From Escherichia coli O157:H7 (lineage in GTDB: Bacteria; Pseudomonadota; Gammaproteobacteria; Enterobacterales; Enterobacteriaceae), in assembly GCF_013167455.1 (NCBI RefSeq), contig NZ_CP038328.1: a DNA stretch of 64,000 bases. The stretch is one strand, 5' to 3'. Made by a program: the position numbers. Every line of letters starts with the position of its first letter. Within the stretch, counting starts at the first letter, position 1. Shown here one piece after another: positions 3,001-6,000 of this stretch.

Positions 3001-6000
3001 GTCTGGATAGTCAGCGCATTTGTCGGACAAGCACAGGCGCAGGCACCACAGGCAATACATTGGCTGGGCATCAGGTCCGGTTTCCCGCGAAAGCCTGGGC
3101 TGACCTCCAGTGGCGCGAAGGGATATTTCACCGTCGCGGTTCCGGCGCGCATAATAGTTTTCAGTAACTTCAGCATCTTCTGTCCTTACTTCAGCGGCGA
3201 ACGGTTACGATCAATGCCGTAGCGTTCGATCTCTTTATACGGCACGGTTTTTGACTGGCGCTTGCGCACATCAACCAGCGTCACACGGTCGGTACAGGAG
3301 TAGCAGGGATCAAGGCTACCGATAATCAGCGGTGCGTCAGAAACGGTATTGCCGCGCAGCATGTAACGCAACACCGGCCAGTTGGCGTAGGTGGCGGCAC
3401 GGCAGCGCCAGCGGAACAATTTTTGGTTATCACCGAGCATGCTCCAGTGCACGTCTTCACCGCGTGGCGCTTCAACAAAGCCGAGCGCGAATGCGTGAGG
3501 TTTATAGCTAAAGCCTTCGGTCAGCAGTGGGGTATCCGGCATGTTGTCGAGAGCAAATTCCAGCATTGCCAGCGAATCAAACGTCTCTTTGACACGGACC
3601 ATCACGCGGGAGAAAACATCGCCGCCGGTGAAGGTAAACAGTGTTTTTGGAATATTGCCGTAGTCGGCGTAGGGGTGATCAAAGCGCAAATCACGGGCAA
3701 AACCACTGCCGCGGATCAGCGGCCCTACAGGGCTATAATCACGGGCGATTTGTCGGTCGAGAATGCCAATGCCCTGAGTGCGTTGTTCCATATTCGGCGT
3801 GGCAAGCAGCATTTCTACCAGCTCCGACACGTCGGCGCGCATCTCGCGCACCAGTTTCAGCGTTTGCAGACGTTGCTCTTTGAGAATATCGCGGCGAACA
3901 CCACCAATCAGATTCAGACCGTAGGTTTTACGCGACCCGGTCAGCAATTCCGCCATTGTCATCGACTTTTCCCGCACGCGGAAAAATTGCATAAAGCCGG
4001 TATCAAATCCAACAAAATGGCAGGAGAGGCCAAGGTTGAGCAAATGACTGTGTAGCCGTTCGACTTCCAGCAGAATCGAGCGAATGGTATGCGCTCGTTG
4101 CGGCACCTCAATCCCCAGTGCATTTTCAACCGAGTTGGTATAGGCCACACTGTGGGCAAAACCGCAAATCCCACACACGCGGTCCGATAAGAAGGTCACT
4201 TCGTTGTAGCCCATCCGCGTTTCTGCCAGTTTCTCCATGCCGCGATGGACATAAAACAGACGGTAATCAGCATCGACAATTTGCTCGCCATCCACAAACA
4301 AGCGGAAGTGACCCGGTTCATCGGAGGTGATATGCAGCGGGCCGACAGGGATCACCCGCGCACCGCTGTTGCCCTCATTGATAAACGGATACGTTTCGGA
4401 ATCAGTCGTCGGTTCAGGGCGCAGTCGATAATCCATCGCATCTTTGCGCAGCGGATGCATATCTTCCGGCCAGTCATCGGGCAACACCAGGCGACGCTGA
4501 TCCGGCAGGCCAACCGGAATCAGCCCGTACATATCACGAATTTCTCGCTCGCCCCAGACCGCGGCAGGGACGCGCGGTGTGACTGACGGAAACTCCCGAC
4601 TGTCGGCATCGACCAGCGCCTTCACCACAATCCAGCATTTTTCGGCCCCTTCCATTGAAAGGGCATAATAAACCGCGTAATGACCGTTAAGTGTCCGCTC
4701 GTCGTTGCCAAACAGGACCGGAAGCCAGCCATCATGTTGATAATAAAGATACTGTACAACGTCAGGCAGCAGATTGATTTTCACCGTAATGGTGACCTGT
4801 TCAGGCGTTTGTCGCTCTTCATCCAGCACCGCGCCGGGGAACTGCGTTTTCAGGGCGGCGAGAATCGCTTCGCCACGATTTGACGATGAATTAACGTTCA
4901 CTGTGTTTCTCCGAAACAGATGCGGTGCCTGAAGGCAAAAAATCATGCCAGGTGCTACGTTGTGCAGGCAGGTCGTGCGTCCCTGAGAGGACTATAGTGG
5001 AAGCGCCCGCCAGGATCCTGATGACAGGTTGTGGAATATGCGTTCCCATCGCCAGCATCATGACCAGCAGAATCACCATTGGCGAGGTGGTCAACCAGCC
5101 GAGATCACCCCGGTTAACGGCCTGCGGCGGTTTCGCCATTAACACCCGCGCAGCCATCCGTACCAGGCCCGCCAGCACCAGCGTTAACAGCAATAACAGC
5201 AGGACGATAATCAGCAGGTGATTACGTGCCAGTCCGGCGGTAACGGTCATAAATTCGCTAAGAAAAATGTTGAAGGGCGGCATCCCTGCCAGCGCCAGCG
5301 CACCGCCGCCAAACAGCACGGCGGTAAATGGCATGATTTTGAGCATCCCACAGACGACGTTGAGATCGCGCGTGCCGTACTTGAGCAGTACATTGCCGGA
5401 ACCGCAGAACAGCAGCGTTTTTGCCAGACTGTGGTTTAAGGTGTGCAGCAGCGCGGCAAAAATTCCCAGCGGCCCGCCAATGCCTAGCGCCACCGCGACC
5501 AGTCCCATGTTCTCCACGCTGGAGTACGCCAGCAGACGCTTAATGTCCCGCTGTACCAGAATGAAAAATGCCGCCACGGCAACCGACAACATGCCGAAGA
5601 TGAGCAACAACCGGTTGGGGAAATCGCTGCCGATGGCCTGGCAAATAATGATGTAATAGCGAATCAGCACCAACAGCGCGCAGTTCAGCAATACGGCGGA
5701 GAGTAGGGCGCTGACCGGACTCGGCGCTTCACTGTGAGCATCCGGCAGCCAGGCGTGCATGGGAAATAGCCCGGTTTTGGTACCAAAGCCAATTAGCACA
5801 AACACAAAGGCCAACAGCATTAATGTTGGATCAAGCAAGGACGATTGCTTAAGAACCTCGCTCCAGAATATCGCCATTTCTGCCTGCGGCATAACGCTGG
5901 CGGCGTTGGCGTATACCAGCACGGTACCGAACAGACCAAAAGCGACACCAACAGTACAAATAATGATGTACTTCCATGCTGCTTCCAGCGATGAACGCTG

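Follow-up and report, generated by a model that had tools for sequence, protein, structure and literature searches.

Among the described relatives of HyfG, the large catalytic subunit of hydrogenase 4, the closest for comparison are HycE of Escherichia coli hydrogenase 3 (PDB 7Z0S/7Z0T chain E), which, like HyfG, is a NuoC-NuoD-like fusion harboring [NiFe] cysteine motifs and a C-terminal assembly peptide, and the HyfG protein of Pectobacterium atrosepticum (ECA1241), which belongs to an experimentally active FHL-2 and for which, as for E. coli, a GUG start has been reported (PMC7384014). The GUG start of E. coli hyfG was itself described by Finney et al. in 2019 (PMC7384014), where the cleavage motif R/VTLV (the slash marking the cut) is also reported for HyfG, and the site at which the same authors placed a His tag in K-12 HyfG, “between Gly-85 and Ala-86” (Finney et al. 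2020, PMC7654741), follows a numbering which is counted from this GTG. Genes of the hycE type differ from hyfG in their setting, being located behind hycD (about 320-375 aa) and beginning with ATG after a short gap, whereas the GTG of hyfG abuts or overlaps the upstream gene. The Pectobacterium operon furthermore encodes the protease HyfK, for which the E. coli hyf operon has no gene (PMC7654741).

The DNA analyzed here, referred to as the window, is a stretch of 64,000 nucleotides from E. coli O157:H7 (contig NZ_CP038328.1) in which hyfF is located upstream of hyfG, with hyfH and hyfI downstream, as defined by open reading frames (ORFs) and by the RefSeq annotation of the identical region. 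The hyfG gene of the window is identical (0/1716 mismatches) to that encoding WP_001102329.1 in strain PV15-279 of serotype O157:H7, with 7 of 14,400 positions differing between the two across the hyf region. The features on which the following analysis relies are collected in Table 1.

Table 1. Features of the hyfF-hyfG junction and of the hyfG length polymorphism in the window
Feature	Position	Strand	Remarks
hyfG CDS	3186..4901	minus	571 codons plus stop; hydrogenase 4 large catalytic subunit; ORF and translation
hyfG start codon GTG	4899..4901	minus	RefSeq annotation, cross-genus alignment, literature GUG
Shine-Dalgarno core GGAG	4909..4912	minus	Within hyfF CDS; 7-nt spacer to GTG
hyfF stop codon TAA	4891..4893	minus	8 nt past first base of hyfG GTG
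hyfF CDS	4891..6471	minus	526 aa; last codons hold putative hyfG ribosome-binding site
In-frame ATG, rejected as hyfG start	4944..4946	minus	By-product of hyfF codons His-Asp (CAT GAT)
48-nt segment, codons 386-401, encoding ARDYSPVGPLIRGSGF	3699..3746	minus	Present here, absent from K-12; MG1655 pairwise alignments
Upstream copy of 10-nt direct repeat GCCCGTGATT	3737..3746	minus	Flanks K-12 deletion
Downstream copy of 10-nt direct repeat GCCCGTGATT	3689..3698	minus	Flanks K-12 deletion

The window-encoded HyfG aligns over residues 7-571 with residues 4-581 of HycE (phmmer against 7z0s_E, E = 8e-293), in keeping with the expectation of the sequence-only reading that the GTG-started protein would match the HycE N terminus, and NuoD-family profiles match its residues 183-463. 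The two [NiFe] motifs, RVCGICG (residues 241-247) and DPCYSCTDR/VTLV (residues 531-543), are invariant in a 41-sequence alignment. The protein is therefore assigned, from these sequence features, to the group 4a [NiFe]-hydrogenase large subunits of the HyfG/HycE type, a NuoC-NuoD-like fusion for which C-terminal cleavage is predicted.

The overall interpretation which best accounts for the data, and to which we assign a probability of roughly 0.9, is that hyfG is initiated at the GTG listed in Table 1, that its translation is most likely coupled to that of hyfF, that the window carries a full-length allele specifying 571 aa, and that the K-12 gene has been shortened by a 48-nt deletion between the two GCCCGTGATT repeats. 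The hyfG frame is open over 3186..4946 on the minus strand; the frame opens with an ATG and its next canonical in-frame start is the GTG, these two being the sole canonical in-frame starts (ATG, GTG or TTG) between the upstream in-frame stop and hyfG codon 12. Initiation at the ATG would yield a protein of 586 aa with a 15-aa N-terminal extension. It had been claimed previously that this is the only in-frame ATG, that it lies about 55 nt inside hyfF and that it adds 15 aa, all of which can be read directly in the sequence, where the ATG begins 56 nt from the final base of the hyfF stop codon. Direct reading likewise gives an overlap of 11 nt between hyfF and hyfG, the C terminus of HyfF being ...SEKHSER.

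The RefSeq start of hyfG is the same GTG in O157:H7, in K-12 strain RV308, in MG1655 (b2487) and in 12 further E. coli genomes picked to span variation, although this concordance is not independent evidence, as annotation pipelines propagate starts by homology. Pairing with the 3′ end of 16S rRNA separates the two codons, with a predicted duplex energy of -6.6 kcal/mol for the GTG at its 7-nt spacer versus +0.6 kcal/mol for the ATG, the latter computed on the 17 nt preceding it. The proposed check for a Shine-Dalgarno sequence within hyfF upstream of the GTG thus had a positive outcome: the putative ribosome-binding site reads cGGAGaaacacaGTG, and its CGGAGA-N6-GTG arrangement scores -6.6 kcal/mol, the cross-species consensus CAGGAGA-N6-GTG scoring -7.4 kcal/mol. 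The start region from -70 to +40, inclusive of both the GTG and the ATG, is invariant among 14 E. coli alleles.

Initiation at the upstream ATG, which would produce the 586-aa form, is considered highly improbable. The codon is the only in-frame ATG, it defines the longest ORF and it is retained in all 14 E. coli alleles, though it is located within hyfF codons which would be conserved anyway; it is, however, preceded by no Shine-Dalgarno sequence, it is used by no annotation among the E. coli records opened, and the extension which it would add has no counterpart in HycE. The corresponding codon reads GTG in the Citrobacter sequence compared, and the extension lacks conservation, many species having in-frame stops at this location. 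The use of both codons, producing two HyfG isoforms of different length, is regarded as less probable still: nothing specific speaks for it beyond the two codons sharing a frame and being invariant in E. coli, all of the evidence against the ATG applies to it equally, and the dual-start layout is not conserved in other genera.

The N-terminal region of the protein bears on initiation further downstream. The 41-sequence alignment shows no variation at residues G10, F21 and P22, and AlphaFold2 predicts a confident helix at residues 11-20 behind a disordered tail at residues 1-6; the full-length model, which was built on the same alignment, reaches a mean pLDDT of only 63.5 (below 50 for residues 135-244 and 490-571) and was applied to the N-terminal tail and helix only. 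The invariance of G10, the predicted helix and the HycE alignment together indicate that a start past about codon 10 would cut into a conserved domain. The portion of the tail which precedes G10, predicted to be disordered, varies between genera in both its length and its sequence; for example, the Citrobacter HyfG compared possesses four extra codons just after the start (VN[YSDS]VN...; inserted after codon 2, window 4896-4897) relative to that of E. coli.

A downstream start, at the CTG of codon 17 or at the in-frame GTG of codon 25 or 40, would produce a protein of roughly 555 aa, which is the length of K-12 HyfG, and the existence of the in-frame GTG codons is consistent with such a proposal. 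We nevertheless regard it as very improbable, since the K-12 annotation begins at the same GTG as that of the window and its 16 missing residues are internal, while a downstream start would forfeit the invariant G10, F21 and P22 together with the helix that is aligned to HycE.

Comparison across species was based on a single scan of a species-genome collection, which returned 80 loci; together with the window, 75 loci (74 of them from other species) are of the hyf type, defined as carrying a HyfF-sized ORF (about 510-650 aa) upstream of hyfG or as being cut by the contig end at that point; one locus with an upstream ORF of 361 aa (L069) was placed with the hyc-type loci despite possessing the same GTG. 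In 71 of the 75 hyf-type loci, the Shine-Dalgarno sequence scores best for the GTG of (C)AGGAGA-N6-GTG, and in two more (L018 and L063) the same GTG is retained while a downstream codon scores slightly better, which brings the GTG to 73/75. ATG starts represent three clear exceptions, namely two in Pasteurellaceae (L071 and L081) and one in a Formivibrio metagenome-assembled genome (L076), and the hyc-type loci, with HycD upstream, begin with ATG. The GTG is located 1 nt after the hyfF stop in 27 loci, and overlaps of 4, 11 and 14 nt occur in 18, 5 and 3 loci, respectively. Among the 14-nt overlaps are those of two Pectobacterium loci related to that of P. atrosepticum (L039 and L041), where CAGGAGA precedes the GTG; the Pectobacterium HyfG shares about 80% protein identity with that of the window and contains the 16-residue segment discussed below, and differs from the E. 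coli protein in its longer N-terminal tail.

Upstream of the GTG, the open frame extends for anywhere between 0 and 85 codons across the 75 hyf-type loci and its translation is not conserved; about half of these loci have an in-frame stop 0-15 codons upstream, and an upstream in-frame ATG is present in just 11, the ATG of the window included. In the Citrobacter sequence compared, a GTG occupies the position of the E. coli ATG, and the E. coli GTG start aligns with a Citrobacter GTG. The loci L016-L024, from Trabulsiella, Yokenella, Pluralibacter and relatives, carry the conserved GTG and Shine-Dalgarno sequence and, in addition, an in-frame ATG six codons downstream (MNGLAQGD...), and their start is less clear-cut than that of E. 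coli. The window junction conforms to the conserved hyf-type design in its aligned GTG, in an AGGAG-type Shine-Dalgarno sequence located 6-7 nt upstream within hyfF and in a start which overlaps the hyfF stop. This layout, with the GTG and its hyfF-embedded ribosome-binding site, is ancestral for hyf-type (FHL-2) operons.

The start which the sequence-only reading favored, namely the GTG with its 11-nt overlap and a product of 571 aa, is therefore corroborated by annotation, by the duplex energy of -6.6 kcal/mol, by its recurrence in 71/75 loci and by the literature (PMC7384014). The same four lines of evidence, i.e., annotation, Shine-Dalgarno sequence, conservation and published description, agree to such an extent that calling the start ambiguous was an overstatement. 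A literature search for experimental mapping of the E. coli HyfG N terminus by Edman degradation, N-terminomics or initiation-site ribosome profiling returned none. On its comparative and annotation basis, the assignment of the start position appears strong and may be regarded as settled as far as sequence evidence allows; it is neither ambiguous nor new, being correct in the databases and the literature already.

Because the putative ribosome-binding site (GGAG with its 7-nt spacer) sits in the final codons of hyfF and the hyfF stop is located 8 nt inside hyfG, synthesis of HyfG is most likely coupled to the translation of hyfF. Ribosomes terminating on hyfF would re-initiate at the adjacent, weak GUG or, alternatively, would free the site for new ribosomes, and such coupling would tie HyfG output to that of HyfF and hold HyfG at a low level. 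The mRNA structure predicted across the junction (window 4862-4951, minus strand) has a folding energy of -18.8 kcal/mol and a z-score of 0.30 relative to shuffled sequences, providing no signal of a regulatory hairpin, and coupling through the unmasking of a start which is occluded by structure consequently receives no specific support. That GTG rather than ATG has been retained across the Enterobacterales suggests, in line with a proposal of Finney et al., that a weak start is selected for.

The difference in length between the HyfG proteins of the window and of K-12 has an origin other than the start codon. The statement that the K-12 annotation specifies about 555 aa proved accurate: MG1655 hyfG (b2487, NP_416982.1) is 1668 nt long, encodes 555 aa and begins with a GTG located 11 nt inside hyfF. 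It resembles the window gene in this start and overlap, in the 89 nt upstream, which are identical bar one base, and in 97% of the protein being collinear, and differs from it in the absence of 48 nt (residues 386-401) and in the substitution T321I at a family-invariant residue. The two proteins are collinear from residue 1, with G180D and T321I as substitutions and a single gap at residues 386-401, such that the first 385 residues contain two substitutions and no gaps. The discrepancy between 555 and 571 aa is thus explained by a 48-nt in-frame deletion between the GCCCGTGATT repeats rather than by a different start, and, since b2487 begins at the same GTG and its 16-residue gap is internal, the idea that K-12 HyfG starts at a codon which is CTG in the window is incorrect. 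The more general supposition, that either the reference start or the strain sequence must differ, holds for the sequence, in the form of an indel of 48 nt located 1.15 kb past the start codon, and fails for the start itself. The perfect 10-nt repeats around the gap are, to judge from the sequence, the hallmark of a slippage or recombination event involving short repeats. By virtue of the 48 nt which it carries at 3699-3746, the window belongs to the full-length allele class and not to that of K-12.

Codon 180 (window 4362-4364), which is part of a variable linker between the NuoC-like and NuoD-like portions of the protein, specifies Gly in the window versus Asp in all 13 of the other E. coli alleles. 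A second small in-frame length polymorphism of the hyf operon is apparent in hyfH, for which forms of 540 and 546 nt exist among E. coli (L084, L085 and L093 compared with window 2631-3176). Frameshifted pseudogenes are annotated by RefSeq for hyfF in O145 strain RM8995-C1 (L087), for hyfH in strain SMN152SH1 (L089) and for hyfI in an O111:H8 strain (L091) and in strain 2009C_3996 (L092); these may reflect independent decay of the operon in several lineages or, alternatively, assembly errors. Outside the hyf region, the eut operon of the window (about 47,650-51,250) lacks both the IS1203 insertion which PV15-279 carries in eutB and the 11.4-kb prophage remnant (intZ to a tape-measure gene) which PV15-279 carries between eutB and eutA; the operon is thus uninterrupted at both sites in the window, and the flanking genes into which the window extends differ from those of PV15-279.

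The distribution of the deletion was assessed among complete E. coli genomes, 4294 of 5426 of which were classified as hyf carrying through a match of at least 95% identity to a 601-nt junction query, which occurs once in each and on the chromosome. With an 88-nt probe made up of the 48 nt and 40 nt of flank, and coverage of 80% or more required for a presence call, the full-length segment was detected in 2179 of these 4294 genomes. Some 2115 others did not reach this threshold, the match ending at nt 50 in the rows sampled, and a K-12 junction probe provided the complementary picture. As the deletion is present in about half of the hyf-carrying genomes, it represents a common polymorphism rather than a K-12 oddity. 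Among the records listed, the deletion occurs in C600, JM83, VR50, O111:H8 and O45:H2, and the full-length form in O157:H7, O104:H4 and O145. Downstream of about nt 810, and as far as the 3′ end of the gene, a single haplotype is common to all six of the deletion alleles examined, while their 5′ parts differ, a pattern which fits a single origin of the deletion followed by recombination.

The segment that is absent from K-12 is conserved elsewhere: each of the 79 complete homologues among the 80 species loci carries it, with 11 of its 16 positions invariant among them (ARD.S.VGP..R.SG). The equivalent segment of HycE (PDB 7Z0S/7Z0T chain E) reads IARDFSNVGPMVRASGH, and the GP..R[GA]SG core is common to HycE and Pyrococcus MbhL (6cfw) and is shared, fully or in part, by the complex I 49-kDa/ND7 subunits aligned. 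Against every NuoD-family profile, the K-12 allele scores 30-40 bits below the window allele.

Younger variants are expected in any case to be richer in slightly deleterious changes. The six deletion alleles (L003 and L089-L093) were compared with eight full-length alleles (the window, L084-L088, L094 and L095), and private codon variants, polarized by majority codon in this non-random sample of only 14 alleles, were found at a non-synonymous-to-synonymous ratio of 7:5 in the deletion group versus 10:53 in the full-length group (Fisher p = 0.004), or 6:1 versus 9:34 (p = 0.002) when only rare variants are considered. Of the nine rare non-synonymous changes among full-length alleles, four stem from one O145 strain with an annotated frameshift in hyfF. 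Changes at family-invariant residues occur in the deletion alleles: T321I in all of them, P196L in two, G197S in a single allele. The excess of amino acid changes in the deletion alleles suggests relaxed selection, albeit in a small and non-random sample, and the K-12 reference hyfG is a deletion allele with signs of decay, the window carrying the intact form.

The hyf operon is poorly expressed in laboratory strains. Nearly all E. coli hydrogenase 4 genetics and biochemistry has been performed in K-12 derivatives (MG1655 and MC4100), and the absence of Hyd-4 activity from K-12 has been attributed to expression, maturation or assay conditions (PMC7654741, PMC7384014). Finney et al. (2019, PMC7384014) saw the obstacles in poor expression, in the lack of an accessory gene and in assay conditions that are in dispute, and in their 2020 study (PMC7654741) none of 15 K-12 strains, which included promoter swaps, a fusion to the HycE C-terminal peptide and an extra protease, displayed Hyd-4 activity; protease level, in their words, “is not the sole factor”, and the alignment presented there covers the last 93 residues of the protein only. 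No mention of an internal hyfG deletion was found in the accessible literature, a body which does not extend to Andrews et al. 1997, Skibinski 2002 or Self 2004, and the deletion has apparently gone unremarked so far.

It is possible, though we advance this only tentatively, that the 48-nt deletion disables HyfG through the loss of residues 386-401 and their GP..R[GA]SG motif, and that it is a main reason why replacing promoters and supplying protease did not suffice to obtain Hyd-4/FHL-2 activity from K-12. In reviews published in 2025-2026, E. coli FHL-2 is still regarded as a possibly active complex; should they be correct, the deletion allele could not be fully dead.

The start assignment of hyfG changes nothing in itself, as the comparative data only firm up the existing annotation; of greater consequence than the start codon is where the difference in length comes from. 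If the deletion is indeed disabling, K-12 would be the wrong reference for hydrogenase 4, and strains with the full-length allele, including the source of the window, would encode a potentially active enzyme.
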